Assembly: GCA_963662625.1 (NCBI GenBank)
Contig: OY759726.1
Span: 320,001 to 384,000 of the forward strand
DNA: 64,000 nucleotides
Direction: 5' to 3'
Source: Nitrosopumilus sp.
Lineage (GTDB): Archaea; Thermoproteota; Nitrososphaeria; Nitrososphaerales; Nitrosopumilaceae
The notes beneath the pieces are model-generated. The model worked only from the letters and a program-made list of their open reading frames with translations. It did no database searches and was not told the DNA's origin. The position numbers and the translations under genes are program-made. Shown here one piece after another: positions 5,421 to 38,472 of the stretch; the first letter of the stretch is position 1; each line of letters begins with the position of its first letter.

Positions 5421-5421
5421 G

Positions 5422-6012
5422 CTAGCCTTCCTCCCCCTTGCCTTCCTTTGCCGGGGCATCGCCGTTAGCCTTTTTGATCTCCTCCTCGATCCAGCCGTCG
5501 GCTCCGAGGAACGGCTGCCTGCACGTGATCCCGATCTTCCCCATGGTCGCGGCCTTGCCCAGGGACACCGCCGTGATCCTGGCGCGAAGCGTCGAGCCGA
5601 CCTTCAGCGTCCTACCGCTCTGGTTTGCCACGATCATTCCCGACTTTACGTCGCTTTTCAGGTAGTCGTCCATGACCTGCGAGAGGTGTAGCAGCGCGTC
5701 GGTGGGGCCGATCCTCACAAACGCGCCAAAGTCGGTGATGTCCACTATCTCGCCCTGGACGATCTCCTGGAGTTTCGGGTAAAACGTGAGTGCCTTGAAT
5801 TCCACCTTGTGGAACGTGCCGCTGTCCCCCGCGATCATCTTTCCCATCTCGTCCACCTTGGCATCGAGTATCATTATGATGTAGCCCAGCTCCGCGTTGA
5901 TCATGCTCTCGTATTTTTCCTTGAGGATGTTTATCGCCGCCTTCTTGAGCATCGTCCCAAACAAGCTCGGCGGTATCCTTACCACATCAACTAGGGTAAC
6001 TATAGAAAACAA
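5422..6012 (-). CDS. rpoE1: DNA-directed RNA polymerase subunit E' (Rpo7)
   Basis: DVVRIPP, S1 domain FGAFVRIGPTDALLHLSQ, CRQPFLG; TTG start at 6012 inferred. Confidence 0.93.
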   Translation of the reverse strand: MFSIVTLVDVVRIPPSLFGTMLKKAAINILKEKYESMINAELGYIIMILDAKVDEMGKMIAGDSGTFHKVEFKALTFYPKLQEIVQGEIVDITDFGAFVRIGPTDALLHLSQVMDDYLKSDVKSGMIVANQSGRTLKVGSTLRARITAVSLGKAATMGKIGITCRQPFLGADGWIEEEIKKANGDAPAKEGKGEEG

Positions 6013-6610
6013 CTGTGTAGCTTCCTTGGATTTGAATTTATGAATCTTTGGATCCCGCGGCGGCGCGGCGGGCCCTGTCCGGGACGCGCGGCGGCGTGCG
6101 CATCGGCCCCGGCCCGTGACCCCGACCAACATGGTTTGTAATTGTTAGCCGGCCGGCGCCGTCCCCGGCGCGGACGCCATCCGCCGCGCCGCCGCGCATG
6201 CGCCCGCCGCCACAACCCGTCAGCCCCGCGGCCCCGGCCCGGATCCACGTCCGCCGCGCGGCGGGCGGCGGCGCGAAGGGGTTGCGCGCGGCGCGCCGCC
6301 GGCCCGGGCGGCACGTTTTTCACGCCAGCCTTTTGCGCGGCGCCTTTTTTGATCAGGGCCACGTGCCGGGCCGCCGCTTGCAGGCCGCACGCCCGGCCGG
6401 CGGCCGGCAACGGACACCGGCATGCGCCGCGACCTGGCCCGGAGCCGCCTCGACCGTGCTGCCCCGGTGCCTGAAGCCGAACCGCGCAACCGGCCGGCAA
6501 GTACAAGTTCAGGTCCACCCCGGATTCGTGTCTGGCCGGAGAATGTCTGCACTGGTTTTGTGCCTGCCGTATGCTTGGACCTGAGTATGTACGCCGTCAA
6601 GCACGGTATT

Positions 6611-6618
6611 TTTAAATA
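6611..6618 (+). promoter_or_regulatory. TATA box, probable leaderless mrp transcript
   Basis: TTTAAATA about 24 nt before ATG 6642. Confidence 0.55.
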
Positions 6619-6641
6619 ATGCGTTCTGATCTTTTCAGCCT

Positions 6642-7769
6642 ATGGTGGGAGTGGATCAGGTACTGGAAAAGCTCAGCACCGTGATTGACCCCGACTTGAA
6701 GAAGGACATCGTCTCGATGGGGATGATAAAGGACCTCGAGTTGGATGACGGTAACCTGAAGTTTACGCTGGAACTGACCACGCCGGCATGCCCGTTCAAC
6801 GTCGAGATCGAGGACGACGTACGGAAGGCGATAGGCGAGATCCAGGATCTCAAGAACTTCGACATGAACGTCACCGCCAAGGTGATGGAGGGGCGGTCAC
6901 TTGACGAGGACACCGGCATGGCCACGGTCAAGAACGTGATAGGCGTCGCAAGCGGCAAGGGCGGAGTCGGAAAATCCACCGTATCTCTGAACCTCGCGCT
7001 GGCACTGTCGCAGGCAGGCGCCAAGGTAGGGCTGCTCGACGCGGACATATACGGCCCCAGCATCCCGCTGATGCTGGGACTGAAGGAAGGGTACATGGAG
7101 GTGGAGGAAAACAAGCTGCAGCCGGCCGACTCGAACGGGATGAAGGTGGTCTCGTTCGGCTTTTTCGCGGAGCAGGCCCACCAGGCCGCGATCTACAGGG
7201 GCCCCATAATATCCGGGATCCTGAAGCAGTTCCTGGTGGACACGAACTGGTCCGACCTGGACTACCTCATAGTGGACCTCCCGCCGGGCACGGGCGACAT
7301 CCCGCTGACGCTCGCGCAGACGATCCCCATAACTGGAATCCTCGTGGTGACGACGCCGCAGGACGTCGCAAGCAACGTGGCGGTAAAGGCAATCGGCATG
7401 TTCGAGAAGCTCAACGTGCCGATACTCGGGGTCGTTGAAAACATGAGCCACTTTGTGTGCCCCAACTGTACCGAAAAACACCATGTCTTCGGCACGGGCG
7501 GCGCCAAGAAGATAAGCGAGAAGTTCGACATGCCGTTTCTGGGCGAAATCCCGCTGGCCCCCGGAATAATGTCCGGCTCGGACTCGGGCAAGCCGATCAT
7601 GATCTCCAGCCCCGATTCCCCGAGCGCCCGGGCATTCCGCGACAGCGCCAAGAACATAGCCGCGCAGTGCAGCATCCTGGCCGCAAAACTGCAGGAAGAG
7701 CTAGAGTCCGGGAATGCGGGCGACGGGCAAGGGCCCGGGCAGGCAGGCGACGGGCAGGCAGGCAGCTAG
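6642..7769 (+). CDS. Mrp/NBP35 (ApbC) Fe-S cluster carrier ATPase with N-terminal DUF59/FeS_assembly_P domain
   Basis: DPDL..DIV..G and LTTPACP; SGKGGVGKS; DLPPGTGD; ENMS..CPNC. Confidence 0.92.
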   Translation: MVGVDQVLEKLSTVIDPDLKKDIVSMGMIKDLELDDGNLKFTLELTTPACPFNVEIEDDVRKAIGEIQDLKNFDMNVTAKVMEGRSLDEDTGMATVKNVIGVASGKGGVGKSTVSLNLALALSQAGAKVGLLDADIYGPSIPLMLGLKEGYMEVEENKLQPADSNGMKVVSFGFFAEQAHQAAIYRGPIISGILKQFLVDTNWSDLDYLIVDLPPGTGDIPLTLAQTIPITGILVVTTPQDVASNVAVKAIGMFEKLNVPILGVVENMSHFVCPNCTEKHHVFGTGGAKKISEKFDMPFLGEIPLAPGIMSGSDSGKPIMISSPDSPSARAFRDSAKNIAAQCSILAAKLQEELESGNAGDGQGPGQAGDGQAGS

Positions 7770-7780
7770 AGCCGATTCCA

Positions 7781-8278
7781 GTGACCCTTTCTGATTCCCT
7801 CAGGGAAGAACTGAAAACCCCGCTGGGCGAGCTGGTGCCGGAAGGCCGGGTCAGCAGGGATGCCATAGCGCGGCTGATCCCCGAAGGCGCGTACGTCGTT
7901 TCCGTGGGCGACAGGACGACCGAGAGGATGATCGAGTTTGGCCTCGACCCGCCCTTGCAAATAATCGACAACCAGGAGAAGCGCAAAAAACGCGACGCGC
8001 TCGGCGCCGGGGGGGCGACTTCCCTCCTAGAATGCAGGAATCCGGCGGGGGAGATCACCGAGCAGGGAGTCGGTGCGGTAAGGGAGGCCTTCTCGCTGGA
8101 GGCCCCGGTGAGGATCACGGTGGACGGCGAGGAGGATCTCCTCGTGATCCCGGCCTGCGTCTACGCGCCGCCCAACTCCGTAGTGCTGTACGGCCAGCCC
8201 GACGAGGGGCTGGTCGTGGTGCGGGTCACCGCAGAAATTAGAAATAAGACCCGGGCCATACTTGACTCAATGAGGTGA
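7781..8278 (+). CDS. GTP-dependent dephospho-CoA kinase (DUF359)
   Basis: LREELKTPLG, VGD, NPAGEIT, VDGEEDL, YGQPDEG; GTG start inferred. Confidence 0.85.
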   Translation: MTLSDSLREELKTPLGELVPEGRVSRDAIARLIPEGAYVVSVGDRTTERMIEFGLDPPLQIIDNQEKRKKRDALGAGGATSLLECRNPAGEITEQGVGAVREAFSLEAPVRITVDGEEDLLVIPACVYAPPNSVVLYGQPDEGLVVVRVTAEIRNKTRAILDSMR

Positions 8279-8279
8279 A

Positions 8280-8334
8280 GGGTATGATGAGACGGTGGCT
8301 GTATGATCCGTGATTACACTAAAACCTCTGACCC
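8280..8334 (+). ncRNA. Box C/D guide sRNA
   Basis: GGG(8280-82), box C ATGATGA(8284-90), 12-nt guide, D' ATGA(8303-06), C' GTGATTA(8310-16), 11-nt guide, box D CTGA(8328-31), CCC terminal stem; canonical archaeal size and spacing. Confidence 0.8.
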
Positions 8335-8479
8335 TGCTTCAAACCCTGCGGGGGCGCGGCGGCACCCCGGGGACGGCCTGGCACTCCGCGCGCGGGGAGC
8401 TGGCGGCAAACCAAAATGCACCAACTTTCGCACAACAATTGACAACCACAGATAAACGGCCGCCGCCTGATCCGTCCAT

Positions 8480-8842
8480 GTGAAGCTGGATCCCGACCTG
8501 CGGCTCGCGATCCTGGAGAAGGTCGGGATATACTCCTGCCGCTTTTCCATCCCAGAGCCGCACGTCCTGATGACCACCAGGGAGGTGCTTGGGATGCCGA
8601 AGGGGGTGACGGAAGGCAGAAGGACGTCCGCGTACAAGTACTACGGCGTGTCGTACCTCAACCACAACCTGGTGTTCATCAACGTCAGGAAGATCCCCGA
8701 CGAGAGGGCCCTGGAGAACACCATCGTCCACGAGCTGATCCACTTGCGGTTCCCGTACCTGTCCCACGGCAGGCGCTTCAACAGGCTTGTCAGGCAGGGG
8801 CTGCGGGGGAAGAAATTCCGGCCGTACAGAAAAAGGGGCTGA
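8480..8842 (+). CDS. Small HExxH zinc-metalloprotease-like protein (SprT/M48-like)
   Basis: TIVHELIHLRFPYLSHGRRF. Confidence 0.65.
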   Translation: MKLDPDLRLAILEKVGIYSCRFSIPEPHVLMTTREVLGMPKGVTEGRRTSAYKYYGVSYLNHNLVFINVRKIPDERALENTIVHELIHLRFPYLSHGRRFNRLVRQGLRGKKFRPYRKRG

Positions 8843-8893
8843 CGTTTTTCTCATTGATTTATATTTCCCAGCAAAAGGCATGCTGAGTGTAGT

Positions 8894-10933
8894 ATGAACC
8901 TCCAGGAACTGCTGCCTTTTGGGGCTGGCATCGCGGCTTTCATAGTTGCCGCGATCATGGTGGCCTGGATCTCAAAGCAGCCCAGCGGCACAAAAGAGAT
9001 GATGGAGATCTCAAACGCCGTCAGGGTGGGGGCCGCCGCGTTCCTGAAGCGCGAAATGAAGATCATCGTGCCCGTCGCGGTCGTCCTGGCCGTCATCATC
9101 GGGGTCTTCCTGCAGCCGTCAAACGGCATCGCCTTTGCGGTCGGCGCGGCGCTTTCCGCGGTGGCGGGGCTGATATCGCTCAAAATCACCGTAAAGGCAG
9201 CTGTCAGGGCGGCCAACCTGAGCAGCAGCGGCCTCGGGAAGACATTTGCCATGGCGTTCAGGGGCGGGGCCACCGTCGGCCTGGCAGTGCCTGCCATGGC
9301 GCTGCTCGCGATAACCGGGCTCTACCTGATCTACCCGGATCCAATCACCATCGCGGGGGTGGGCATCGGGGCCAGCCTCATCGCGCTGTTCATCAGGATC
9401 GGCGGCGGGATATTCACAAAGGCCGCGGACATGGGGGCCGATCTCGTGGGAAAGGTGGAGGCGAACATACCAGAGGACGATCCCCGCAATCCCGCAACCA
9501 TCGCGGACAACGTCGGCGACAACGTCGGCGACGCGGCGGGGATGGGATCCGACGTGTACGAGTCCTACATCGTGACGATACTCGCCTCCCTGCTCATCGT
9601 GGCGCTGATCGGCGCGCCCGAACTGTTCCTTTACCCCATACTGATCGGATCGTCCGGGATGATCGCGTCCATCGTGGGCGTCGCGACCATCGGCTCCAAG
9701 AACGTCACGGACGTCATGAAGCCCCTCAACCTCTCGTTTTACGTCTCTGCAGGCATAGCCATCGCCCTCAACTTCGCGTTCACCATGGTGTTCGTGGGGG
9801 ACTCGATCACCGCGTACGCGCTGTTTGGCACCACGGTGATAGGCGTAATACTGGTGCCCGTAATCCAAAAGATCACGGACAAGTACACCAACTACAAGTA
9901 CGGCCCGGTAAACGAGATCGCCGATTCCGCAAAGTGGGGCTACGCGTCGCTGACCCTGATGGGAATAATCAAGGGGCTGCAGTCCACGGGCCCGTTCATG
10001 ATCGCGCTGGTGGCCGCAATAATAATCTCGTTCGCAATATCGTCCTCCGCCGCCCCCGAGGGGGCGGACCCTGTCATATACGGGATATTCGGCACCTCGC
10101 TGACCGCCATGGCGATGCTGAGCCTTGCGGGCATCGTGCTCAGCATCGACGCGTTCGGGCCGATCGCGGACAACGCCGGGGGCATAGTCGAGATGACCGG
10201 GATGGGGGATGAGAACCGGAAGGTCACAGACGAGATCGACGCGGTCGGGAACACCACCAAGGCGGTCACCAAGGGGTTCGCGATCGCCAGCGCGGCCCTG
10301 GCGGCCCTGGCCATGATCCAGGCGTTCCAGTTCGAGGCGTCACACGTGTTCGCGGGCGTCCTTGAGATGAGCTACAGCCTGACGAACCCGTCGGTAATCG
10401 TCGGGCTGCTGGTGGGCGGCCTCGTGCCTTTCATCATCACGGGGCAGCTGATCAACGGCGTGTCGCGCGCGGCCGGCAAGATGGTCGACGAGGTCCGGAG
10501 GCAGTTCAAGGCGGATCCCGAGATCCTCACTGGCAAGTCCAAGCCCGACTATGCAAGGTGCGTGGACATCGCCACGGTGGCGTCGATCAAGGAGCTCTGG
10601 AAGTCCGCGATCATCGCGATCATCGCGCCGATCATCCTGGGCATCCTGCTCGGGCCCACCGCGGTGGCGGGGCTGCTCATGGGCTCGGTGGTGACGGGGA
10701 TATTCCTGGCGTACCACCTGGCTAACACCGGCGGCGCGTGGGACAACGCGAAGAAGCTGATGGAGATGAAGGGGAAGAAGGGCTCCGAGGAGCACAAGGT
10801 CGCGGTGGTGGGGGACATCATAGGCGACCCGTACAAGGACACCGCGGGGCCGGCGCTCAACACCGTGATCAAGCTGCTCAACACCATCGCGATCGTGTTC
10901 GCCCCGGCGTTCATCGCGATAATCGCGATCTAG
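8894..10933 (+). CDS. hppA: Membrane-bound H+-translocating pyrophosphatase, K+-independent type
   Basis: GGGIFTKAADMGADLVGKVE, DNVGDNVGD, GNTTKA (Lys signature), GDPYKDTAGP. Confidence 0.95.
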   Translation: MNLQELLPFGAGIAAFIVAAIMVAWISKQPSGTKEMMEISNAVRVGAAAFLKREMKIIVPVAVVLAVIIGVFLQPSNGIAFAVGAALSAVAGLISLKITVKAAVRAANLSSSGLGKTFAMAFRGGATVGLAVPAMALLAITGLYLIYPDPITIAGVGIGASLIALFIRIGGGIFTKAADMGADLVGKVEANIPEDDPRNPATIADNVGDNVGDAAGMGSDVYESYIVTILASLLIVALIGAPELFLYPILIGSSGMIASIVGVATIGSKNVTDVMKPLNLSFYVSAGIAIALNFAFTMVFVGDSITAYALFGTTVIGVILVPVIQKITDKYTNYKYGPVNEIADSAKWGYASLTLMGIIKGLQSTGPFMIALVAAIIISFAISSSAAPEGADPVIYGIFGTSLTAMAMLSLAGIVLSIDAFGPIADNAGGIVEMTGMGDENRKVTDEIDAVGNTTKAVTKGFAIASAALAALAMIQAFQFEASHVFAGVLEMSYSLTNPSVIVGLLVGGLVPFIITGQLINGVSRAAGKMVDEVRRQFKADPEILTGKSKPDYARCVDIATVASIKELWKSAIIAIIAPIILGILLGPTAVAGLLMGSVVTGIFLAYHLANTGGAWDNAKKLMEMKGKKGSEEHKVAVVGDIIGDPYKDTAGPALNTVIKLLNTIAIVFAPAFIAIIAI

Positions 10934-11109
10934 CCGTCCGTCGTCCGGGTCATGTCAAGCTCGTCTATCTGGGCCTGTATCGCCCTCTTCAGGGTGTCGC
11001 CGTGCCTATCGCAGAACCTGAAATAGCCGTCGACCGTCTGGAAGCACCCGCAGATCCACCCTGTCTCCTTGTCGCCCTCCACGGTCCACCTCGAGTACCT
11101 GTTCTCCAT
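10930..11109 (-). CDS. Small hypothetical protein (CxC...C..H, possibly zinc-binding)
   Basis: 59-aa MENRYSRW... frame with an AT-rich promoter-like region upstream (11140-11160). Confidence 0.55.
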   Translation of the reverse strand: MENRYSRWTVEGDKETGWICGCFQTVDGYFRFCDRHGDTLKRAIQAQIDELDMTRTTDG

Positions 11110-11165
11110 GCACCCGGTGCGCGCAGGATCCAATATAGATTTTGTATAAAAAAAATAAAAGGCGT

Positions 11166-11423
11166 TTAAGGACAGCCTTCCATCTTCTGGATGAAGTATC
11201 CTTTCTCCTTGATCGCCTGCTCTACGGGCTCTGGGGCGCCCTGGGAATGGCAGAACTGGCATTCGTTGGCAGTTATGGTGGCGTTCCCCTCGCCGATTGA
11301 CTCCAGCCACTCCTTGCCGTACGCTATGGCCTTCTCGTGGTTCTTCTCCTCGGTGATCACGTCAAAGTGCATGGTGTGCCCGTCTGCGGCCTTGACGTAA
11401 CTGTCGTATACGTGGATTTCCAT
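11166..11423 (-). CDS. DUF2024 family protein
   Basis: HVYDSYV...MHFDV...ECQFCHS. Confidence 0.85.
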   Translation of the reverse strand: MEIHVYDSYVKAADGHTMHFDVITEEKNHEKAIAYGKEWLESIGEGNATITANECQFCHSQGAPEPVEQAIKEKGYFIQKMEGCP

Positions 11424-11471
11424 GCTACCCCTAAAAGCAAGGGATATTTAATTCAAAGATCTACCCCCCGC

Positions 11472-11858
11472 ATGGGGAGCCGGGTCAGCGTCGACGTTCC
11501 AGGGCACGGTTCCATCCTCCTGGAACTGGGCGGAGGCGACTCGCCCAGGACCGCGGGGGAGCTCGTCCGGAGGCTCCCGTTCAAGGCCACGCTGCACGTG
11601 TGGGGGGAGGAGATCTACTCGTCAGAGTCCCCCGTCCGCATGCCGGAGGAGGGCGCGAGGCAGGCGGTGCAAAAAAACGACGTCGCCTACTGGCCCGCCG
11701 GCAGGGCGGTGTGCCTGTTCTACGGCCCCACGCCGCTCGGGGGCCGGGGGGAGATCGTCCCGGCGTCGCCCGTCAACGTCATCGGGACGATCCTGGATCC
11801 CGACAAGGGCGTGCTGGGCGTCGCCGAGGGGAAGGCCGCCGAGTTCAGGCAGTGCTGA
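11472..11858 (+). CDS. Cyclophilin-like fold protein (DUF369/TM1367-like)
   Basis: WGEEIY, DVAYWPAG.AVCLFYGPTP, PASPVNVIG. Confidence 0.85.
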   Translation: MGSRVSVDVPGHGSILLELGGGDSPRTAGELVRRLPFKATLHVWGEEIYSSESPVRMPEEGARQAVQKNDVAYWPAGRAVCLFYGPTPLGGRGEIVPASPVNVIGTILDPDKGVLGVAEGKAAEFRQC

Positions 11859-12273
11859 CCCCGGCCACCTCGACCTCCGCCATCTCGCCGTCCAGGACGA
11901 ACGCCCTGAAGCACCCGTCGATCCCGGAATATATCACCCACACTACGGGGTTGCCCCGCATGAACCTGGCGTCGGTGTCTGACGGGTACGCCGCGGAGTC
12001 TGGGTGGGAGTGGAAGATCCCCACCACGCCGACCCCCTTCCTCTCGGCCTCCTCGTACGCCCGTATCAGCTGCCCGTTGGGGATGGCAAACCTGCGCGGG
12101 GACCTCTCGGAGTTCTCGGCCAGCACCACCTCCGAGACCGTGGCGTCGCCGCCGTCCACGCTTCCTAGCAGCAGCGCGCACGACTCGTTCGGCATGCATC
12201 CCCGCGCATGGTCTGCAAGGGCCTTCCCCTGCCGTTCCGTCAGTATTATCCTTCGCAAGCCTGCATACTGCAC
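11845..12273 (-). CDS. JAB/MPN+ (M67) metallopeptidase
   Basis: PNESCALLLG...FHSHP....PS.TD JAMM motif. Confidence 0.9.
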   Translation of the reverse strand: MQYAGLRRIILTERQGKALADHARGCMPNESCALLLGSVDGGDATVSEVVLAENSERSPRRFAIPNGQLIRAYEEAERKGVGVVGIFHSHPDSAAYPSDTDARFMRGNPVVWVIYSGIDGCFRAFVLDGEMAEVEVAGVSTA

Positions 12274-12330
12274 CTGCTCCCGTTTTGTTAACCTATCTGC
12301 GCAGGCGCGGCCGCGCCCCCGCCGGGGCGC

Positions 12331-13194
12331 CTACCCGCCGCTCGCGGCTTCCGCGCCCTCCGGCACGGCAGTGGCGACCGGCGCCGCCTCCGCTTCCGGC
12401 TCCACGACGACCAGGGTCGCGACCATCCACGGGTGGACGGCGCACACGTACTCGTACTCGCCCAACTCGAGGGTGCCCGTGTCCAGGCTGAAGACCTCGC
12501 CCCCGTCAAACAGGTTGGAGTTGAATATCTGCCCAAAAGAGTCGCCCGTGTTGGTCACCGTGTGGGGGAGGTTGTCCTCGTTCGTCCATTCGGCGGCGTA
12601 CCCTTGGGGGACTACGGCCCTGTCGGGCTCGTAGTCGGGCTGTCCCTGCTCTGCCGAGCCTGCCAGCACCCTGATTGCGTACGTGGGCCCCGCCGGCTCC
12701 AAGTCCTCCGGCTCTTCCACCTCCACGACCTGCTCCTGCACCATGTAGGTGTCGGGACTGACGAAGCCGAACGCGATCCACACTATGATGCCAGTCGCCC
12801 CCGCCAGCGCCGTGATGGATCCGACCGGCTTTAGGTACTGCGGCATCTTCGCCGCCACGTACGCGATCATGATCGCCGGAAATGCTATCGCCATCAGGAT
12901 TCCTGCCAGCGTCGCCGTAAAGTCCGACGTGTTCAGCGTGAACGCGAACATCCCGAACCCGAGCCCGATCGAGATGATGACCAGCGTGGTGGCCTTTGCC
13001 TTGTTGCTGGTGGAGATCCCGCCGTCCAGGATCCCGACTGCCAGGAAGATCAGCCCGATAAACATGGTGAGGCCCGTCAGGGCGTGCATCCCGTCTATGA
13101 AGGTATGCGCAATGCCTGTATAGGATATGACCACGCCTGCCAGGCCTATGGCCGTCAGCCCCATGCCCGGCATCATGAGATCCCAGTTGCTCAT
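12331..13194 (-). CDS. Membrane-anchored blue (type 1) copper cupredoxin
   Basis: Several N-terminal hydrophobic helices; C-terminal PHTV...CAVHPWM copper ligands. Confidence 0.88.
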   Translation of the reverse strand: MSNWDLMMPGMGLTAIGLAGVVISYTGIAHTFIDGMHALTGLTMFIGLIFLAVGILDGGISTSNKAKATTLVIISIGLGFGMFAFTLNTSDFTATLAGILMAIAFPAIMIAYVAAKMPQYLKPVGSITALAGATGIIVWIAFGFVSPDTYMVQEQVVEVEEPEDLEPAGPTYAIRVLAGSAEQGQPDYEPDRAVVPQGYAAEWTNEDNLPHTVTNTGDSFGQIFNSNLFDGGEVFSLDTGTLELGEYEYVCAVHPWMVATLVVVEPEAEAAPVATAVPEGAEAASGG

Positions 13195-13338
13195 CCATGC
13201 TAGCTGGTAGGAGTGTGATACTTATTCCTTTTGAAATCGCCGGGACCGCGCGCCGCGCCTTGCGCCATCCCGGGGGGCCGCGCGCTCCGGCCGGGCATCC
13301 CACTTGGTGCCGCCACAAGACGCGCAAAAATGGGTTTT

Positions 13339-14295
13339 TCAGCACTTGGCCATGGACGGCCTCAGGGTAATCCTGAGCCTGTACATGCCGAGGATCTCCT
13401 TGCACCTGTTCCTGATCGTGACCTCGGTGACCCCCGCGATGCTGGAGACGTCCCTCTGCAGGATGCTCTGCCCTAGCAGGACGGACGCCACGTACAGGTA
13501 TGCCGCGGCGATGCCGTTGGGGGCCTTGCCGTCGGTGATGCTGCTGTCCTTCGTCTTCTCGGCGATCTCCAGGGCCAGCCTCCCCACCCTGACCTCGGTC
13601 TGGGTCATGTTGGCTATCTTCGAGATGTACTTGTCCATGGTCACCACCGGGGCTGCGGGCCTCCCCGTCTCCATGACTATGGTCCTGTAGTATTTCGCGG
13701 CAAGCTTCGTCTTTGACTTTACGTCCTTCGGGGCGCATATCTCCCTGCAGATCTCCTCGAGGGATCTCACCACGGAGCACTGCTTGCACGCCATGTAGAT
13801 CATGGCGGCGGTGATGCTGGTCACCGACTTGCCCTTCACGTCCACGTGACCGTCCAGGTTCCTGTACGCCATGGAGGCGGTCTCCAGGACGTTCTTTGAG
13901 AGGTTGAGGTTGTCGCACGCCTCGCCCATCTTGGACAGGACGTTGGCAAGCCTCCTGTCCCTCGACGAGGAGACGCGCACCCTCTTTTGCCACTTTCTGA
14001 GGTTGTTCATCTGGCTCGCGACCTGGTGGTTGATCACCTTCCCGCTAAAGTCCTTGGAGCCGATTGATATCTCGGTGGTTATTCCCAGGTCGTGCTGCGA
14101 GTACGTCGTCTGGCCGGTGGCCCTCGCAAGCCTCATCTTGTCTTCCAGGCTGGAGCTCTTCGTCTCCGGCCCGTAGTCCACGATCTGGTCCGCGACGACC
14201 ACGCCGCAGCCGGAGCAGATTATCTCGCCGTTCTGGACGTCGTCGACTAGCGACGCCTTGCATTCGGGGCAGTTCTGCCTTTCCATCACGTTCAT
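13339..14295 (-). CDS. tfb: Transcription initiation factor IIB paralog
   Basis: CPEC...CSGCG zinc ribbon, two cyclin repeats, AGVTEVTIRNR. Confidence 0.92.
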   Translation of the reverse strand: MNVMERQNCPECKASLVDDVQNGEIICSGCGVVVADQIVDYGPETKSSSLEDKMRLARATGQTTYSQHDLGITTEISIGSKDFSGKVINHQVASQMNNLRKWQKRVRVSSSRDRRLANVLSKMGEACDNLNLSKNVLETASMAYRNLDGHVDVKGKSVTSITAAMIYMACKQCSVVRSLEEICREICAPKDVKSKTKLAAKYYRTIVMETGRPAAPVVTMDKYISKIANMTQTEVRVGRLALEIAEKTKDSSITDGKAPNGIAAAYLYVASVLLGQSILQRDVSSIAGVTEVTIRNRCKEILGMYRLRITLRPSMAKC

Positions 14296-14561
14296 TTCTT
14301 CCTTCTCCCAGCCTTCTTCTGCGCGCCCGCGGGAGCCCGCCCCGCCGCAAAGACGCTCTTCCCCACGTACCTCTTGATGTTGTTGGTGAGCGGCGCTGCT
14401 GACGCAAACGGCCTCCTTACCGGGCCTATCAGTTCTACTACCTTCGCTACCTTCGTGCCGTTCTCGTCGCAGAGGACCTGTCCTTCAGCCGCCTTGTCAG
14501 ACAGCTGAATGATCACTCTGCCGCTGCCGGCCAGGTGCATCACTTCGCCTACCTCCTGCAA
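14292..14561 (-). CDS. gar1: H/ACA RNP subunit Gar1/Naf1
   Basis: VGEVMH...VAKVVELIGPVRRPF; conserved gar1-tfb adjacency. Confidence 0.82.
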   Translation of the reverse strand: MQEVGEVMHLAGSGRVIIQLSDKAAEGQVLCDENGTKVAKVVELIGPVRRPFASAAPLTNNIKRYVGKSVFAAGRAPAGAQKKAGRRKK

Positions 14562-14695
14562 TTACTGACCGTAACCACCGCGTTGCTTTCATAACCTTCT
14601 GTCAACTTTACTTTATCTAAGAGCTAGGATTGTGCGAGCAGCCGCCCGGAGCGGGGCCGGGGCCGGCGCGGGCGCGCGTTCCCGGGGCCGGCAGG

Positions 14696-14995
14696 TCACT
14701 TTGCCTGCTTGGGCCTCCTTGCGACCAGCCTCTCCGAAATCTTTCGGAGGATCCTCGTCTTGGGGGGGCCCTTTGGCAAGACGACGTACCCGGACCTCAC
14801 GTACGCCCTCCTGGGATGCCTGACTTTCTCGTCTGACTCGGTCACCTCGAAGCCGGCAGACCGCGCGGCGTCCACGAGCTCCTTCAGGGACGGATCGAAG
14901 ACGCACGCTTCCTTCCCAAGCCTCCTGCCCTTGGACCTTGGCAGGGTCTTGTTGAAATAATCCAGCCAGATTACGACGTGCTCGTAATCCTTCAT
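14696..14995 (-). CDS. srp19: Signal recognition particle protein SRP19
   Basis: IWLDYFNKTLPRSKGRR, HPR. Confidence 0.9.
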   Translation of the reverse strand: MKDYEHVVIWLDYFNKTLPRSKGRRLGKEACVFDPSLKELVDAARSAGFEVTESDEKVRHPRRAYVRSGYVVLPKGPPKTRILRKISERLVARRPKQAK

Positions 14996-14996
14996 G

Positions 14997-15377
14997 TCAG
15001 CCTACCAGGACCGCGTTGACAATCCCGGTCTGGCCGGGCTTGGAGACGACCCTGCACTTGCCCTCCTGCGTCTCCAGTATCGCGCCCTTCGTGATGATGC
15101 CCCTCCTCTGGTAGTCGTTGTTCGTGGCGTTCTCCAGGACCTTCAGGATCTTCGTCTTCTTCACCTTCGAGTCGCCCGTAGCCAGGTTGACAAAGTCCAC
15201 CGTCTTCAGCGCCGTCTTCCTGTTCTTTCCCCTCACGTTCCTCGTGACCGTGACCTGGGCCCCCGTCACGGCCTCGTTGGGGTACCTGTCGATCTCGTAC
15301 TTTCTCCTGATCCTCAGCGGGTGCCTCCTCCCGCCCGTGGTCTTGCTCGTGGCCAGGTTCTCTACGGATTTTTTCAC
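14997..15377 (-). CDS. rps8e: 30S ribosomal protein S8e
   Basis: TGGRR, RGKNRK, IITKGAI, SKPGQTG; GTG start inferred. Confidence 0.93.
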   Translation of the reverse strand: MKKSVENLATSKTTGGRRHPLRIRRKYEIDRYPNEAVTGAQVTVTRNVRGKNRKTALKTVDFVNLATGDSKVKKTKILKVLENATNNDYQRRGIITKGAILETQEGKCRVVSKPGQTGIVNAVLVG

Positions 15378-15509
15378 GATGGTGGTGGGGCCCACTCTAA
15401 TTTATACAAAACGCAGAAGCTGCGGCGCGCGCCAGTCCCCACGCCGCAGGCGCGCGAACCGCGCCCGGCCCCCGGGCGCAGACCCGGCGCGTGCCTGGCG
15501 GCGCAGGGG

Positions 15510-16082: not shown

Positions 16083-16098
16083 CTGCCGACCGCCCCGG

Positions 16099-16755: not shown

Positions 16756-16869
16756 GCGGTCTTTGCTCACACATGGGCTTCTCCCCCATTCCATAATACA
16801 TGCGGGATCTATTTTTTTCCCATACCCAGTCAACTAACTTATATATTGTTCAGGCAAATCCCGTAATTC

Positions 16870-17946: not shown

Positions 17947-18199
17947 CCGGGGCGGGGGCATGGCAGCGGCGTGCGCGGATCTTCGGGGCTGCGAACGCGG
18001 GGCTTCGCCCGCATGCAGGCCGCGGATCCGCCGCGCGCCTCCGGGTAATGCGCGCGCGGAACGCTCGTGGCGCCAGCGCTTTTCGCCCGCCGCGATTGCG
18101 CCGGGCCGCGGGGAACGGGCACGCGCTGCCGGCCGGTGCGTACCGCCCGCGCCTGCTGGCCACGAAGTATTAATTAACTAGTGCGTTCACATTAAACCG

Positions 18200-19015: not shown

Positions 19016-19067
19016 GCGCGGGGCGCCCATCGGGCAGGCCCGCAATCGCCGGCCGTGAGCCAGCGCT

Positions 19068-19631: not shown

Positions 19632-19831
19632 GGCATGTCTTGCGCCCCCGTGGATAAAATCCCTTGCGACGGCCGTGCGCGCGCCCCGCGCGCCGCAGGC
19701 CCCCGCGGGCCCGGCCGGGGGCGTCCTGCGCCAAGGTGCGCCGATCCGGCCCGGGCGCCTCCCGGCACGCTCCCCGGGGCCGGCCCCCGCGTGCCCGCGA
19801 GCCCTGGCCCCACATCCGCAGCGCCCGGCCC

Positions 19832-21168
19832 CAGTAGATCGAAATGTACTAGCCGCCAGACGACTGGTTGGGCCACGCCCGGCAGCCATCCGTCCCGCCC
19901 GCAGCCATCCCCACCATGCACTCCAGCATGACCGCCAGCCGGATCGAGGCGGTGTCGCGGCTCCCGTACCACCCGGCGGACCATTCCACCGACATCATCC
20001 ACAGGTTGTACATCACCAGCGCCATGAAGAACAGGAACGTCCTGACCGAGGCGTCCGGGCTGGTGGTCCTGGGCCTGGCCTTCTCGGCGTCCCTGTACCC
20101 GGTCTCTATCCCCCACCTCTTCCGGTACTCGTCAGGGACGTCGGCGGCGCGCACCGCCCTGCCGGCGTCCGCGTTGGTGGCGTACGCCAGGTACCTCTCC
20201 TGCGCGTCCCCCGAGTCCCACCCGTCCTCGCCCTCCTTCTTCGGGACTATCACCAGGGTGAACGGCTCGCTGGCCTTCCTGTCCTGGGGCGTCAGGGCGT
20301 GCGGGGACACCGCGGCCCTCTCCCCGCGGGCGTGCTCCCCCACGGCCCTCTTTATCCCGGCAGTCCGCGACGCGGGCATGATGAACCTGTGGCCCGACCC
20401 GGACAGCTCCCCGACGACCCCTGCCGAGAAGAATCCCCGGCCCGGCAGGACCAGCCTGGGGCGGACGCCCACGCCAGCGCAGTCACGCAGCAGCTCGCGC
20501 ACGATTCCGGCCCCCGTGCTCCCCCCCTTGGGCCTGCACGCCAGGTTCAGCCCCGGCCCGTCCACCATCTGGGCGGTGGCGTACCCCTCGAAGCGCGACG
20601 TCCCGGACCTGTGCCTCGCGCGCACCAGCTGCTCCTCCCTGGTCGCGGGATCCCTGTCGTACCTGGGTATCAGGTGGTAGTCCAGGGCCACGACGCAGCG
20701 GATCCGCCTGAGGATCCTCGACCGCCCGGCATCCCGCACGGTGGATGCGAGGGCGCCGGCGCACCGCTCCCGCATGGCGTCCGGTTCGGGGCACGCCCCC
20801 CGTATCCTGGAGAGCACCCACGCCGACGACGGCACGCGGCGGGGCCCGTGGCGCACGGCGAGCGTCCCGGTGGCGCCAGACGCGCACGCGCGGTCCCTGC
20901 ACATGGACACCAGAACGCGCACGAAGTCGGCCATGCCGTACACGGCGTTGTGCCGGCCCGAGAACCCGATGCCCGCCCTCTCCAGCAGCCCGGGCAACAT
21001 TTTAAACGCCTTGCCGGCCACCCTGAGTCGGTGCCCCTGCGGTTCGTTTTGGTTGTACATGACGGATGACAGGGGCGCCTGATCCATTGGTTTTTCTGTC
21101 CAAAACGTTCCAGTGCCAGGTCAATACATGCTGGCCAACGCCCCACAGGGGTACATTTCGATCTACTG
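19832..21168 (-). mobile_element. IS4-superfamily (ISH3-like) insertion sequence, 1337 bp
   Basis: Perfect 18-bp TIRs CAGTAGATCGAAATGTAC (19832-19849 and 21151-21168); 5-bp TSD GGCCC (19827-31 and 21169-73). Confidence 0.9.
19849..21087 (-). CDS. ISH3-like DDE transposase, probably catalytically dead
   Basis: ALDYH (D1), YRKRWGIETGYR (YREK-like motif); the expected D2 motif LDRGFFS reads PGRGFFS. Confidence 0.8.
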   Translation of the reverse strand: MDQAPLSSVMYNQNEPQGHRLRVAGKAFKMLPGLLERAGIGFSGRHNAVYGMADFVRVLVSMCRDRACASGATGTLAVRHGPRRVPSSAWVLSRIRGACPEPDAMRERCAGALASTVRDAGRSRILRRIRCVVALDYHLIPRYDRDPATREEQLVRARHRSGTSRFEGYATAQMVDGPGLNLACRPKGGSTGAGIVRELLRDCAGVGVRPRLVLPGRGFFSAGVVGELSGSGHRFIMPASRTAGIKRAVGEHARGERAAVSPHALTPQDRKASEPFTLVIVPKKEGEDGWDSGDAQERYLAYATNADAGRAVRAADVPDEYRKRWGIETGYRDAEKARPRTTSPDASVRTFLFFMALVMYNLWMMSVEWSAGWYGSRDTASIRLAVMLECMVGMAAGGTDGCRAWPNQSSGG

Positions 21169-21359
21169 GGCCCGGTGGCCCAGTCGTTCGGCGGCGGCGC
21201 GCCCTACATCGTCCTCGGGGCGGCCGGGATCGGGGTCACCGCGCTTGCGGTAGCCCGCCGCGGGAGGCTCGAGCCCAGGCGGCGCCACGGCTAGGCCCGG
21301 GCGGGCGCCGCGGGGCCGCCGCGCAGTAGGTTTAATTTCGAACAAGACCATTACATGGC

Positions 21360-27477: not shown

Positions 27478-28532
27478 TATAGCAACGCTCAAAAGTTCTT
27501 GAGCACCAAGGACTTACTGTTGATGTACCTCATGACGTCCAGGTTGGCGTGGGACGTCCTCAGGTATTCGGACAGGGTGCGCCTCATCTCCCCGAACGTC
27601 CCGTAATACTCCGACACCAGGACGTCGCGCCTTGGCCTGCGCCAGTACTCCTCCATGGCGTTCAGCTCCGGCGTCCCGTCGGGAAGGTACGTGACCCTCA
27701 CGCCGGGGTTGCGCGAGACGTATTTTTTCACGACCCCGGCCGTGTGGGGCGACGCGCCGTCCATCATTGCGTGCACCTTCCCGAAGCGCCGGTGCAGCCC
27801 CTCGAGGTACGACAGGAACGTGTCCTTGTCGAACCTGTCGTGCGTCCTGAAGTGCCTGCGCCCGCCAGCTGCCAGCGCCCCGTACGCCACCGCCTTGCGG
27901 CGGTTGCCGTCGTGCCCCACGACGATCCGCCCGCCCCTGGGGGACCAGTACTTCCTCCCGGTTACCTGGTCGCGTATGTAAACCGCCCCGCCCGGCATTG
28001 CTGTGGCAAAACCCTGCCCTTCCAGGCGCGAGATCTTCCTCCTCGCACTCTTCTGCCACCCGCGTGTCCAGTCCAGGCCCGCCTTGCTGGCGTGGACGCG
28101 CTGCGGCGCCTTGGGGGACAGGCCGATGTTCCCCATGATCCTCCTGACCGACGTGACGTGGTACGCCGCGCCCAGCGTTCTCCGTATGTCGTCGCGGAGC
28201 CTCTCCGGGGCGGCGGTGCCGCCCGTGCCGTCCAGCATGCCTTGGCTCTCCTCAATCTTGGCCTTTGGCGGTCTACCGCTCTTGGGAAGATCCCGGAGGG
28301 AGCCGGTGCCGTCCTACCTGAAGCGTCCCACCCAAGACGACACCCAGTTGGGGCACTGCATGAGGGAGTCTGCCGTGTGTTGGATGCTTTCACTGTTCAT
28401 GCACACCATGCTCACCCCTCCAGCTGCTTGGTCGTTCTACGCCTTGCCACGCACGTACTGGCACCTCCTGCCATAAGGATCAGGCATGATCGCGCCTTGT
28501 TGATTAAAGCGCTGTGTTTGGGCACGCTCAGC
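27478..28532 (-). mobile_element. Degenerate IS630-family element
   Basis: Contains an IS630 transposase pseudogene; end TATAGCAACGCTCAAA at 27478 and a degenerate counterpart near 28518-28532 (boundaries approximate). Confidence 0.65.
27489..28474 (-). pseudogene. IS630-family transposase pseudogene
   Basis: HTH segment WVGRFR*DG...LPKSGRPPK with in-frame TAG at 28314-28316; MDGASPH and PELNAMEEYW retained; first catalytic motif reads MPGGA; 5' part frameshifted. Confidence 0.85.
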
Positions 28533-28582
28533 ACGGCGGCCGACGAATACGGATCAGCATGATCGCGCCTTGTTGATTAAAG
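28477..28582. repeat. Direct repeat, 2 copies, core GCATGATCGCGCCTTGTTGATTAAAG
   Basis: Identical 26-bp core at 28484-28509 and 28557-28582, each preceded by GGATCA(G). Confidence 0.9.
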
Positions 28583-28708: not shown

Positions 28709-28805
28709 ATGGCCGAATACCCCACAAAAAGTCAGATCGCAGTAGGTGGCACGGCATACATAGAGACGAATGAGAACCAGGGAAAGGGCGTGCTCACGGA
28801 GGGGG
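28709..28805 (+). pseudogene. YwbE (DUF2196)-like N-terminal gene fragment
   Basis: MAEYPTKSQIAVGGTAYIETNENQGKGVLTEG resembles the YwbE N-terminus; cut off by the following IS fragment. Confidence 0.5.
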
Positions 28806-28806
28806 G

Positions 28807-29064
28807 GTGCTGTGCCTTCCCACCGCCGCGCCGAAGCCCGGAGCGGCGGGGGCCGTGCGGGAGGAGGCAAGGCACGGGCTGGTCACGTCAAGGCACGGGC
28901 TGGTCACGTCAAGGCACGGGCTGGTCACGTCAAGGCACCACGGGACGCTGGAGGGCCTGAAGCACGCGGTCTCGGGGTATTTCAGGACGTGCCCGATCAG
29001 GGTGGACACCTGCAAGTTCCTGTACCGCTCCATCTGAGGGGAAATTTTCAATGATCGTCACTAT
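28807..29064 (+). mobile_element. IS630-family transposase C-terminal remnant and right end
   Basis: LCLPTAAPKPGAAGAVREEAR...TLEGLKHAVSGYFRT...FLYRSI* parallels the C-terminus of the 27489 transposase (YLPDGTPELNAMEEYW...TLSEYLRT). Confidence 0.65.
28868..28938 (+). repeat. 21-bp tandem repeat CAAGGCACGGGCTGGTCACGT x3 plus a partial copy
   Basis: Directly visible perfect copies. Confidence 0.95.
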
Positions 29065-29107
29065 CGGTACATGCGATTACAATAGACGTGGCGTTGATCG
29101 TAAAAAA

Positions 29108-29431
29108 CTATTTAGCGTTTTTCCTATCGACTAGAACAATAACACAGATTACCGCAACAGGTAAAATCACCATGCTAAACAAAAACGGCACATTATCCCT
29201 AATTTGTGTTGTTATTTGAGGCTCTTCCATTCCGCGTGCAGTGCCACTCCACTCTGATATGCCCTCGCCTGTCACCCCAATTGTCAGTACCGGGCGTGTC
29301 AAAACCATTAATGTTGTGTATATGGAACAATCCATGTCAAGGCTTTGGCAAAACTGAAGTAGAGGTACTAGCGAAATACAAAAAAGAGCAAAACACAAAA
29401 CGACTAAAATTGCTTTATACCTAATTTTCAT
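29108..29431 (-). CDS. Small membrane protein, low GC
   Basis: N- and C-terminal hydrophobic helices; AT-rich compared with the flanks. Confidence 0.65.
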   Translation of the reverse strand: MKIRYKAILVVLCFALFCISLVPLLQFCQSLDMDCSIYTTLMVLTRPVLTIGVTGEGISEWSGTARGMEEPQITTQIRDNVPFLFSMVILPVAVICVIVLVDRKNAK

Positions 29432-29464
29432 TAATGCCTCGACAACATTAAAAAACTAAAAAGA

Positions 29465-30181
29465 TCATGGCGTTAACCTCATCGTGCTGTGAACATTATC
29501 ACCAGTCTGTGCACTTTGCGTTTTTAACAAACCACTTTGCATCTCCCGTTCAAGAGCGGTAAAATACTGTGTTGTAAACTTTGTGCCAGTGTCTAAAACA
29601 TCACTGCCCCGTTGGTGTGTCCAATAACTATCAAAGTCTCGTGTGACGGAATAAAAATGCAAATTAGACGCCTCGTGTTCTAGTCTGACATAATTACCAT
29701 ATGCCCAATCACCGTCATCTGCATATTCCCACAATCCTTGGGCACAAATCAGGTCACCGCCACAGCTAAAGTATAACCGATGAACCAAATACCAGTCATT
29801 GTTGGAAACGCTGGTGACGGGTGCGTCAACAAACTTTATTGTGCTAGTTTGTGGGTTTGCTGGTGGTGTTGATGGTGGCGTAGAGTTGTCGTCGATGGGT
29901 GTTACAGGTCCAGTTTCTCGTAAAACATCTGTCCAATAGTCAGGATCATCATGGAACTCCTCACTAAATATCATTCCGTTTTTTATTAATGTTGGCCTAA
30001 TGGCTTCTAGATGCTTTAACAAGTTTGCTTTTTCATCAGTGTTGGCAGTTTCCATCTCTTCGTATATTTTTTCTACTTGATTAATAAGTTCTTTTTGTTG
30101 TTGTGTTGCTCTGACCTCAAGAGCAGTGGCAGACTCTATTTATTCTAAAAGTTCTGCCTTGTCATTTTCTGATAATTCATA
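29465..30181 (-). pseudogene. 5'-truncated low-GC gene (helical region, Pro/Thr linker, beta-rich C-terminal domain)
   Basis: ORF 29465-30055 continues in frame upstream through a TAA at 30140-30142 (ELSENDKAELLE*IESATALE...) to a sharp GC boundary near 30180. Confidence 0.6.
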
Positions 30182-30346
30182 CTCCTTGTGCAGGTCAATC
30201 CCCACGAAGTACTCCCCGCCGTCCGTGCACTGGTTCCCCGCCCCGGAAGCCTTCCTGCGCTTCCTTGCCGGAGCAGGTAATCTGTTTGTTTGCTTCCTGG
30301 CGCGCTTATGGCAGGTACCGTCTGAAACCGGCTTCTTTCGGGGCAC
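30182..30346 (-). mobile_element. IS110-family recombinase N-terminal fragment
   Basis: EYFVGIDLHKE matches the first DEDD motif (VGID.HK) of IS110 recombinases; the rest is missing. Confidence 0.6.
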
Positions 30347-31837: not shown

Positions 31838-31861
31838 ATGTTCCAAGGGAGTCCCGTTACC

Positions 31862-33864: not shown

Positions 33865-34259
33865 TACGGATCACTGTCCCGATCGCCTACTTAAAATCGT
33901 TTAGAGGCAAGATCCGCGCGCCGCCGGGCCCGCGGGGAAACTGCCGCCGCTACCGGGATCCCCGACACCGGATCCGGCCGCCCCGGCATCCCGCGCGGCC
34001 CGCGGCGGGGGCGGCCAAGCCGCGGCGGCAGGGCCCGGCCGCGGGAGGGCGCCGGGCTGGTGCGGGGGACGCGCCGGCCCATGGCGAGCCGGGAGGCCGC
34101 GGCGGCACCGCGCGGCTAGGCCGGCCGCCCCCAAAGGTGCCGCGGCCGGTGCCACGGTTTGTTTTAAAAATTTACATGTTTTAGAAGCAATGTTTGGAAT
34201 TCAATGGCGATTTGCCCGGCAAAATTACATTTATTAAATCGCCGCCCGCTTTTTGTTCA

Positions 34260-34715: not shown

Positions 34716-34720
34716 GGCGC

Positions 34721-35200: not shown

Positions 35201-35237
35201 TGCCTAGTCGCCCACTAATGAAAATTTAATCCTTCCC

Positions 35238-35872: not shown

Positions 35873-35981
35873 TGCTGGAAATTACTTGCGTGACTTTATA
35901 TCTCTTATTCCGCGGATCCCTGCCGCGCCGCGCCGCGCAGCCGAAAAAGCTTTTTTTATCCGGGCGTCCGACATGTGTGTC

Positions 35982-36758: not shown

Positions 36759-37054
36759 ACGTCGAGGAGAGGGTCTACAGGAAGCTGCTAGACGTGCCCC
36801 GGGGCAAGGTCACCACGTACGGCGAGCTCGCGAGGGCCGTGGGGATGGAGAACGGGCAGCGCGCGGTAGGGCGCATCATGAACCGGAACCCGTACCCGGC
36901 GCTGGTGCCGTGCCACAGGGTCATCCTGTCCAGCGGGAAGATCGGCGGCTATGCGTACGGGGGCGAGGTCAAGGCCAGCATGCTCGCCCGGGAGGGCGTG
37001 GACGTACTGGACGGGAAGGTCGCCGACTTTGAGGAACGGCTCCACAGGTTCTAG
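36755..37054 (+). CDS. O6-methylguanine-DNA methyltransferase family protein (single domain)
   Basis: VPRGKVTTYG, RAVG, PCHRV active site. Confidence 0.9.
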   Translation: MNVEERVYRKLLDVPRGKVTTYGELARAVGMENGQRAVGRIMNRNPYPALVPCHRVILSSGKIGGYAYGGEVKASMLAREGVDVLDGKVADFEERLHRF

Positions 37055-37506
37055 CCATTTCTCTTGGCGACAGCCTCTTCCATCAGGGTCCTGAGGTGGG
37101 CCTTGTTCCTCACGGTGTTGCCGCCCACCTTCTTGTACAGGGTCCAGAACTCGGGGTTGGTCAGGTCCTTCCTGTCCTTGGCGATCTTCAGCAACCTCCT
37201 CAGCGAGCGGACCTTCGCCACGTAGGCGCTCTTCTTTCCCACCCTGGCGCCCTTCCGCCCATGCTTGGAGCCCTGGGTGGTCCCGCGCTTGTTCCTCTGG
37301 GACTTCTTCTTGTGGGCCCGCCCCTTGGAGGTGCCGGTGATCGACTTTATCTTGATCGTGTTGGCCGTTATCAGGCTGCGGATGTTCGCCCTGGTGATGG
37401 CGTCGGCGACGTCTTCCAGGTGGTCCGAGTCAAACTTCACCCTGTGGATCCCCACGCCCGTGACCCTGGACACGAGCCTTTTTTTGGCCCTGAGGTTAAC
37501 TACCAC
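37051..37506 (-). CDS. rpl19e: 50S ribosomal protein L19e
   Basis: NLRAKKRL, GSKHGRKGAR, YKKVGGN. Confidence 0.95.
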   Translation of the reverse strand: MVVNLRAKKRLVSRVTGVGIHRVKFDSDHLEDVADAITRANIRSLITANTIKIKSITGTSKGRAHKKKSQRNKRGTTQGSKHGRKGARVGKKSAYVAKVRSLRRLLKIAKDRKDLTNPEFWTLYKKVGGNTVRNKAHLRTLMEEAVAKRNG

Positions 37507-37894
37507 CGGCGCTCACCCTGGCGTTGAAGATCTTAAACTTGCCCTCGATCGCCCTTGCCATTATCTCCTTCCTCTTCTTCGTGCCGACGCCGTGCCCGAA
37601 CCTGACGCCGTCGGTCTTGGGATCGAGCTTCTCCAGGTCGGCGGCGTTGTGCACCAAGTTGTCGGTGTACCCTGACGGGTGCAGCCCCCTGGAGCGTTTC
37701 GGCCCGCCGTAGCCCACCTTGACGAGCCCGGGGCGGCCCCGGCTCTTCTGCTTGCGCTGGTGGTGATCTATCCCCTTCGGCTTCCTCCACGTGGTCTGGA
37801 GCCTCTTGTAGCGCCAGCTCTCGGGCCTCACAAAGTCCGGGTTCCCGCCCTTGACCTCGTCGCGCTTCTCCAGGGCGTCCTTGTTGATTGGCAT
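37496..37894 (-). CDS. rpl32e: 50S ribosomal protein L32e
   Basis: FVRPESWRYKRL..WRKPKGID, GLHPSG; start reset to ATG 37894. Confidence 0.95.
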   Translation of the reverse strand: MPINKDALEKRDEVKGGNPDFVRPESWRYKRLQTTWRKPKGIDHHQRKQKSRGRPGLVKVGYGGPKRSRGLHPSGYTDNLVHNAADLEKLDPKTDGVRFGHGVGTKKRKEIMARAIEGKFKIFNARVSAGGS

Positions 37895-38472
37895 CAGGCT
37901 ATTTCCTGAAATTTTACATAAATACGTTCCTAGGACGGCAGTTGAGCTAAATGCGTGCCGGATCGAGGCGGGGCGCGTGGCCCCGCGGTGCGCAAAGCCC
38001 CGGCCACTGCGTCTGGCGCGGGCTCGCATTTCGCCCAGCTGGACGGCCAGGCCAGCCGCCGGGCCCCAGCCCCAGGAGGCCGGCCCGCCCGGATGCCGCG
38101 CCGCCCGGCCGCACCCGTCGGGGCGCCCTGCCCAACCGCGCGGCAGCTCGGATTGCCCCGCTCGTGCGCAGGGGAGCCGGCCCCGCGCCATGAGAGGGGT
38201 CGATCCGCCCGGGCGACGGCGCCCGGGCGGCAGCCACGCGTTCGCGCGCGCCACTGCGTACGCGGGGCGCCGGGCGCCCCGCCCGCGCGCGGCCCCGCCG
38301 CCGGCGCGGGATCCCGCGCGCCCCGGATCCGCCGGCGCGCCGGGGCGCGGCATGTGCCGCGGCCCGACGGCATTTCTTGGCAAAGAGATAATAAGGAACG
38401 TCAAGTCGGATCGAAATATCTCATGGCGGGGTTCGGGAGTTCTGCAGGGGAATTCGCTGGGGGCGGCACGGA

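Follow-up and report, generated by a model that had tools for sequence, protein, structure and literature searches.

Prokaryotes are held to mutate with a bias towards A+T. In repeat-induced point mutation (RIP) of fungi, which needs RID or DIM-2, any sufficiently long and similar duplication is struck by C>T changes, and diversity-generating retroelements use a reverse transcriptase to change A to N on one strand of a short template/variable repeat target. For two haloarchaea, passages of PMC9997560 report AT-biased mutation. The passages of a preprint on Bigelowiella natans (bioRxiv 10.64898/2026.01.13.699255) describe TpA hypermutation of integrated viral DNA and propose an adenosine deaminase, and those on very-short-patch (VSP) repair (PMC6116569, PMC12907096) describe Vsr, which nicks 5′ of the T in a T:G mismatch so that T is replaced by C; some Vsr enzymes cut T:G in any context (passages of PMC6116569). 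Symbiotic Nitrosopumilaceae appear in passages of PMC7848895 and PMC6790972 as high in G+C (47-67%) and rich in transposases and restriction systems, in a family otherwise low in G+C. Here we analyse a 64,000-nucleotide stretch of Nitrosopumilus sp. (contig OY759726.1, positions 320,001 to 384,000), referred to as the window, together with the genome to which it belongs. This lineage is driven towards G+C, as an original prediction from the letters of the window had proposed, and its insertion sequences (IS) change by coupled pairs in which T>C is joined by A>G three bases downstream (TNNA>CNNG), a pairing that the prediction had missed.

The window includes the following mobile element features, with coordinates given from its first nucleotide:

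19832..21168, minus strand: insertion sequence of the ISH3 family, both terminal inverted repeats present, belonging to a set of 7 copies at least 99.5% identical

20441..20444, minus strand: coupled doublet TGGA>CGGG (CTG GAC > CCG GGC, LD>PG), made up of the coding-strand changes T>C (20444) and A>G (20441)

27478..28416, minus strand: decayed IS630-family element with the first catalytic motif PGGA at 27987-27995, which is IDEA in another genomic copy

28800..29065, plus strand: 3′ remnant of a second IS630-type family, a 71-91% match to that repeat family, with an internal 21-bp tandem repeat

The ISH3 open reading frame (ORF; 19849-21087) is open, has lost the second catalytic Asp and matches NCBIfam NF033541 with an E value of 1.5e-30, under the cut-off. 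Its LDRGF to PGRGF change is real: LDRGF is kept in four of the seven near-identical copies, and the LD>PG doublet is present in the other three and in 7 of the 9 older copies that cover the site. The residue is D in 15 of 15 external homologues, and the possibility that active homologues already carry PG is thereby contradicted. The predicted loss of the IS630 motif and the assignment of the sequence at 28807 to a transposase remnant were likewise borne out.

The seven ISH3 copies show the pattern at its plainest. All eight of their internal differences fall into four pairs in which A>G lies three bases, once four, past T>C (TCGA>CCGG twice, TGGA>CGGG and TGATA>CGATG). Coupling was counted in 11 repeat families taken as IS, one of which later proved to be a host gene, along spanning-tree edges that are incompletely independent. 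Between IS pairs less than 1.5% divergent, 18 TNNA sites were changed doubly and 4 singly, 40 of 70 transitions lay inside TNNA pairs, and the other motif-spacing classes (20 classes) gave three doubles or fewer each. The double/single counts were 56/32 at 1.5-5% divergence, 99/78 at 5-10% and 66/79 at 10-20%. Nine families together have 374 distinct TNNA sites, of which 138 are clean doublet sites, spread over whole elements and all codon positions. When lightly hit copies were compared with intact references, sites of the TCGA, TGGA and TAGA type were double in 36 cases, single in none and unchanged in 84. Codon periodicity was rejected as the cause of the three-base spacing, since ANNT and ANNA/TNNT lack it and doublets occur at every codon position.

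The changes run from A:T to G:C. At 22 of 23 non-synonymous doublet sites, including those of the invariant D, D and E, the 15 external homologues favour the TA state. IS110 copies compared with one intact copy gave A:T>G:C, reverse and transversion counts of 44/0/0, 89/0/1, 182/10/13 and 198/1/4, and of the residues compared with homologues 131 supported the intact copy, 5 the 198-change copy and 19 were tied. For 64 of 81 IS copies (17 were dropped as members of other subfamilies) the per-site ratio of AT>GC to GC>AT was 10, a ratio biased upward by the use of the most AT-rich copy as reference and based on counts inflated by shared ancestry, and the corresponding equilibrium G+C of 0.91 is close to the G+C at four-fold sites (GC4, 0.90-0.91). 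Tree parsimony gave the spectrum a false polarity owing to recurrent hits, and homologue anchoring was used in its place. The tabulated spectrum, dominated about 10-fold per site by A:T>G:C, is neither symmetric nor AT-biased. Both strands of the IS copies are struck about equally. Two identical IS110 copies that lack the first catalytic Asp lie at different sites (L414:474-1565 against genome positions 728432 and 720871), which suggests that hit copies are still moved in trans.

The geometry of the pairs was defined with 850 T>C anchors at less than 6% divergence. Given T>C at position 0, an A changed at +3 in 77% of cases, at +4 in 33%, at +2 in 25% and at +1 in 8%; the co-change of A at −2 to −4 was 28-34%, and at distant offsets 4-18%. 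A same-strand T two or three bases away on either side was changed in only 4-7%, under background, and we conclude that opposite strands are coupled and the same strand is not. Hot sites are TCGA, TGGA/TCCA and TAGA, cold ones TGCA, TGAA and TTAA, and the best site is the dyad-like S-T-C-G-A-S; a ±6 context model trained on other IS families predicts hits with an area under the curve of 0.70-0.83. We infer an event of dyad symmetry that acts on adenines in the two strands, with a three-base stagger in the 3′ direction.

The genome is a complete 1.86-Mb Nitrosopumilaceae sequence (63.4% G+C, 99.5% complete) that encodes archaeal AmoA, with, by our own gene calls, a third-position G+C (GC3) of 0.887 and a GC4 of 0.90. 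Two congeners, about 70% identical to it in DNA, have 0.39-0.41 G+C, relatives overall have 33-41%, and the best 80 metagenome loci have 0.32-0.40, the top ones at 65-70% DNA identity. These values place the rise, a gain of about 23 G+C points inside one genus, on this branch. At conserved sites of 25 genes aligned with both congeners, third-position A changed to G at 626 of 1010 and T to C at 709 of 926, against 12 of 433 for G to A and 3 of 245 for C to T. Single A:T>G:C changes genome-wide can explain how G+C went from about 40% to 63%, and the GC-biased process that had been predicted for the lineage is upheld by these counts as well as by the IS spectrum. The congeners and metagenome relatives were ruled out for the doublet test itself, being too distant at about 65-70% DNA identity. 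No strain differences were found over window positions 1950-19800, where the three sequencing runs compared are contigs of one study. High G+C recurs in several genera of the family (loci L052-L080 at 0.57-0.69 in g2, g7, g11, g13, g15 and g18), often in IS-rich genomes.

The pattern departs from each described system. Like RIP in the preprint passages cited above, it is a one-way transition hypermutation of both strands that ruins transposon copies, but RIP is C:G>T:A, whereas here an archaeon shows A:T>G:C, about 10-fold per site, in coupled pairs. RIP strikes any long similar duplication, whereas here non-IS duplicates of 645-994 bp (93-97% identity) have no doublets and the 135 CRISPR repeats are identical. 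RIP is also confined to repeats; in this genome non-IS pairs lack the coupling, but an imprint at four-fold sites, given below, is genome-wide. The TpA system, as those passages present it, shares an almost pure A:T>G:C change of foreign DNA (198/1/4 in one IS110 copy), but belongs to a eukaryote and is limited to TpA, while here the +1 offset is the lowest class, hits follow G, C and T alike and the pair is three bases apart. This genome shares with VSP repair, whose vsr gene usually neighbours a C5 methyltransferase gene, the vsr and C5 methyltransferase genes described below, and MutS, which restrains Vsr according to passages of PMC6116569 and PMC12907096, was not found; known VSP repair takes one mismatch at a time, and those passages report neither coupled opposite-strand pairs nor IS erosion. 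The co-change profile seen here does not resemble its patch, which runs 3′ from the nick. The pattern shares adenine specificity with diversity-generating retroelements, but consists of transitions only, on both strands about equally and along whole elements. The symbiotic Nitrosopumilaceae share high G+C and many transposases, and the passages on them (PMC7848895, PMC6790972) give no mutation spectrum or mechanism. The coupled pattern thus fails a defining feature of RIP and of the Bigelowiella system and exceeds what the passages on VSP repair describe, and coupled opposite-strand A:T>G:C pairs in a prokaryote were not found in the literature searched, with subscription journals and bioRxiv supplements outside reach.

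Three genes elsewhere in the genome bear on the possible mechanisms:

L351:1498-1902 (genome 1510895): vsr gene preceded by C5 methyltransferase and HNH genes; an IS110 copy lies immediately upstream

L353:1336-1908 (genome 1521112): vsr gene that borders a TGT/ArcS island

L378:13863-16232 (genome ~219900-222200): intact second family-B polymerase, with PriL and helicase genes, in a ~60-kb integrated conjugative element

Both vsr genes are intact-looking, match PF03852 above the cut-off and are absent from both congeners, and the C5 methyltransferase beside the first is intact. The second PolB, in its intact form another difference from the congeners, has an altered ExoII motif, and its integrated element carries three C5 methyltransferase genes. 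NucS, EndoV, MutS and Argonaute were not found in this 99.5% complete genome, nor in its two congeners.

Our preferred reading, to which we assign a probability of roughly 0.38, is that paired adenine lesions on both strands, fixed by Vsr-type removal of thymine, explain the coupled IS pairs. A two-site enzyme would damage, probably by deamination, adenines on both strands three bases apart; a Vsr-type nuclease would then remove the opposing thymines, and both changes would thereby be fixed in one molecule as a TNNA>CNNG pair. Opposite-strand lesions separate at replication into single changes, so doublets need either both thymines replaced first or both errors placed on one strand. The adenine lesion, the enzyme that would make it and the role of Vsr are all read from the geometry of the changes and the gene content. 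A wider form of this reading, an archaeal RIP-like defence in which dyad editing of adenines on both strands of double-stranded DNA falls preferentially on IS, kills transposases through LD>PG, ID>TG and IE>TG changes, makes the genome home to a natural double-strand DNA adenine editor and, by spill-over, raised it from about 40% to 63% G+C, is doubtful, and we hold it only tentatively.

Several observations weigh against the lesion reading. AAG/MPG, an established remover of inosine, is present. Vsr occurs in 46 of 301 family genomes, with 21 of 28 Vsr loci below 45% G+C, and as it is common in low-GC kin it cannot be sufficient. Motif scans gave no DNA adenine deaminase candidate, nor did island proteins in 167 Pfam and 56 NCBIfam scans, most of the proteome being outside these scans, and the one gene with a CDA fold is common to relatives. 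Parallel hits between IS110 subclades were 29 of 36, against 15-19 given by the context model, and smaller sets of hits lie within larger ones (44 of 44 and 88 of 89 contained in the 198), from which it follows that copy-to-copy transfer may contribute. Five non-IS duplicate pairs in this genome, three of which are GC-polarised, have 0 doubles and 41 singles, and in 35 polarised non-IS pairs, mostly coding, hot sites were 4 double and 35 single, against 128 and 14 in IS at a similar load. Since non-IS duplicates are GC-polarised by uncoupled singles, the same enzyme is not the obvious cause of the genome-wide drift. Guidance by CRISPR found no support, as none of 134 spacers has a full-length IS match; two spacers of the type I-G array of 135 repeats match their own genome full-length (838035 and 1799725). 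The genome also has a free-base adenine deaminase gene (740644).

Whether IS are the focus of the coupling stands at about even odds. Slightly short of that is the chance that the coupled process has long acted across the whole genome and was itself the driver of the climb in G+C from about 40% to 63%, with IS as its largest neutral recent record; this is a matter of the target and is compatible with the chemistries considered here. At consecutive four-fold sites half-changed motifs (CNNA/TNNG) are depleted to 0.74, with four 100-kb samples ranging over 0.62-0.89; eight other genomes gave 0.90-1.29, among them G088 with 1.0 at the same GC4, and a low-GC pool gave 1.08. At six-base spacing the ratio was 0.90. 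This imprint counts against a process restricted to IS, and IS equilibrium G+C equals GC4. The spacers of the genome (0.62-0.67 G+C) point the same way, as 331 of them average 0.63-0.65 whatever their distance to IS. In the window the spacer cores are:

1900..2070: GC-rich spacer core, G+C 0.81

6050..6500: GC-rich spacer core, 0.79, between the rpoE′ and Mrp genes

17950..18160: GC-rich spacer core, 0.79

19670..19830: GC-rich spacer core, 0.88, flanking the ISH3 copy

21170..21330: GC-rich spacer core, 0.82, flanking the ISH3 copy

33905..34155: GC-rich spacer core, 0.85

37950..38370: GC-rich spacer core, 0.84, with weak 72-77% matches at four other genomic sites

The whole rpoE′-Mrp spacer has 0.675 G+C, against 0.36-0.39 for the orthologous spacer in two congeners. 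The original prediction held that spacers are richer in G+C than genes, which stands for these seven cores (0.79-0.88 against 0.638 for the window genes) and fails for non-genic DNA as a whole (0.607 over window positions 1-40000); even the cores lie below GC3 and GC4 (0.887 and 0.90). Against a genome-wide process, the non-IS pseudogene pairs, described above, have singles only, and non-genic pairs, a set that includes tRNA paralogues and some IS scraps, are at background level (TNNA 15/121, ANNT 14/132). Half-changed motifs are depleted to 0.67 in the spacer cores, but small samples of G076, G014 and G088 also give 0.58-0.79. The core-gene coupling test is saturated and without discriminating power, synonymous pairs in paralogues are too few for a count, short target duplications are nearly all identical, and no TNNA depletion was found over the whole genome. 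In ISH3-like copies elsewhere in the family the double/single counts are 3/138 (G200), 2/37 (G103), 4/66 (G310), 4/52 (G088) and 3/41 (G112), with a weak twofold excess in G076 (32/168, p 0.002) and G148 (18/74, p 0.04). G076 has an AT>GC skew (105/15/25, A:T>G:C / reverse / transversion) yet little coupling, so high G+C does not need coupling.

T:G-selective gene conversion is the most serious chemical alternative to the lesion reading, although we regard it as unlikely. IS heteroduplexes would be nicked by Vsr at T:G, a short patch would copy the donor and G:C alleles would spread, with no new enzyme. This would explain the restriction to multi-copy IS, the purity of the spectrum and the nested hits, and it fits the excess of parallel hits, the recurrence of all 18 young doublets in other copies and the presence of two vsr genes where no MutS or NucS was found. 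However, a 3′ patch predicts the top co-change at +1 and in same-strand T, where 8% and suppression were seen, and transversions show no 3′ excess below 6% divergence (59 against 58; 220 against 168 at 6-13%). Conversion also requires prior half-changed alleles, of which most ISH3 doublet sites show none, and doublets are missing from the two-copy non-IS duplicates of 93-97% identity.

Less likely again, at something like one chance in eight, is a double error on one strand, in which Dpo4 or else the second PolB would place a C opposite A and a G opposite T three bases further on, with no need of repair. It solves the segregation problem, and the genome has both a Y-family polymerase and, with altered ExoII, an additional polymerase of family B. 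But it demands a near-obligate second error of one fixed type, predicts neither the secondary coupling at −2 to −4 nor the palindromic site preference, and gives no reason for an IS focus; moreover, all 22 family genomes searched have Dpo4, and one of the 40%-GC congeners has a match to the second PolB.

The original prediction had pointed to loss of NucS or EndoV, which would leave transitions or deaminated adenine unrepaired and give independent A:T>G:C changes. Neither gene was found in this genome and non-IS singles are GC-polarised, as this explanation would have it. But NucS, EndoV and MutS were not found in either congener of about 40% G+C, and of 36 family genomes NucS occurs in only 2 and EndoV in only 6, so this genome is not unusual in lacking them. 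Inosine repair looks intact, host PolB keeps its ExoI-III proofreading motifs, and AAG/MPG, ITPase, two uracil-DNA glycosylases (UDGs), Nth-like and OGG1-like glycosylases and Dpo4 are present, so that loss of an OGG1/AlkA-like glycosylase was also ruled out. Loss of repair gives independent singles, from which 18:4 or 36:0 coupling of opposite strands is impossible, and as a sufficient cause it is contradicted and very improbable. Least probable of all is an assembly artefact of base-calling or polishing errors at modified palindromic sites, which would survive only in repeats, to which the signal is confined (the contig comparison covers single-copy DNA only), since heavily changed copies have diverged by 12-15% and are in effect unique sequence, the number of changes per copy forms a gradient from 0 to 198, in one direction and with a polarity set by homologues, and contigs of run X1 agree with positions 1950-19800, with no other letters in long pieces.

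Other features accompany these elements. At window positions 28484-28582 a direct repeat of at least 26 bp with a period of 73 adjoins the IS630 remnant; it is one of about 15 non-genic repeat-spacer-repeat units in the genome that resemble off-target CRISPR spacer insertions. A low-GC island (29100-30300, 41-51%) has two ORFs, one of 196 amino acids without a Pfam match, and a polyphosphate kinase 2 gene lies at 18200-19015. A complete-looking dndA-E phosphorothioation cluster is found in another low-GC island (L309:12082-18245).

Some symbiotic Nitrosopumilaceae reach 57-69% G+C, and in this genome a mutation spectrum can be measured, with an equilibrium of 0.91 that agrees with the four-fold sites. 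The TNNA>CNNG signature lends itself to counting in any genome rich in IS and to assay in vitro. Should an enzyme indeed edit adenine in both strands of a DNA duplex, it would represent a new class of defence and a natural counterpart of engineered adenine base editors; if Vsr-driven conversion is at work, the IS would show GC-biased conversion in a prokaryote directly at the molecular level.

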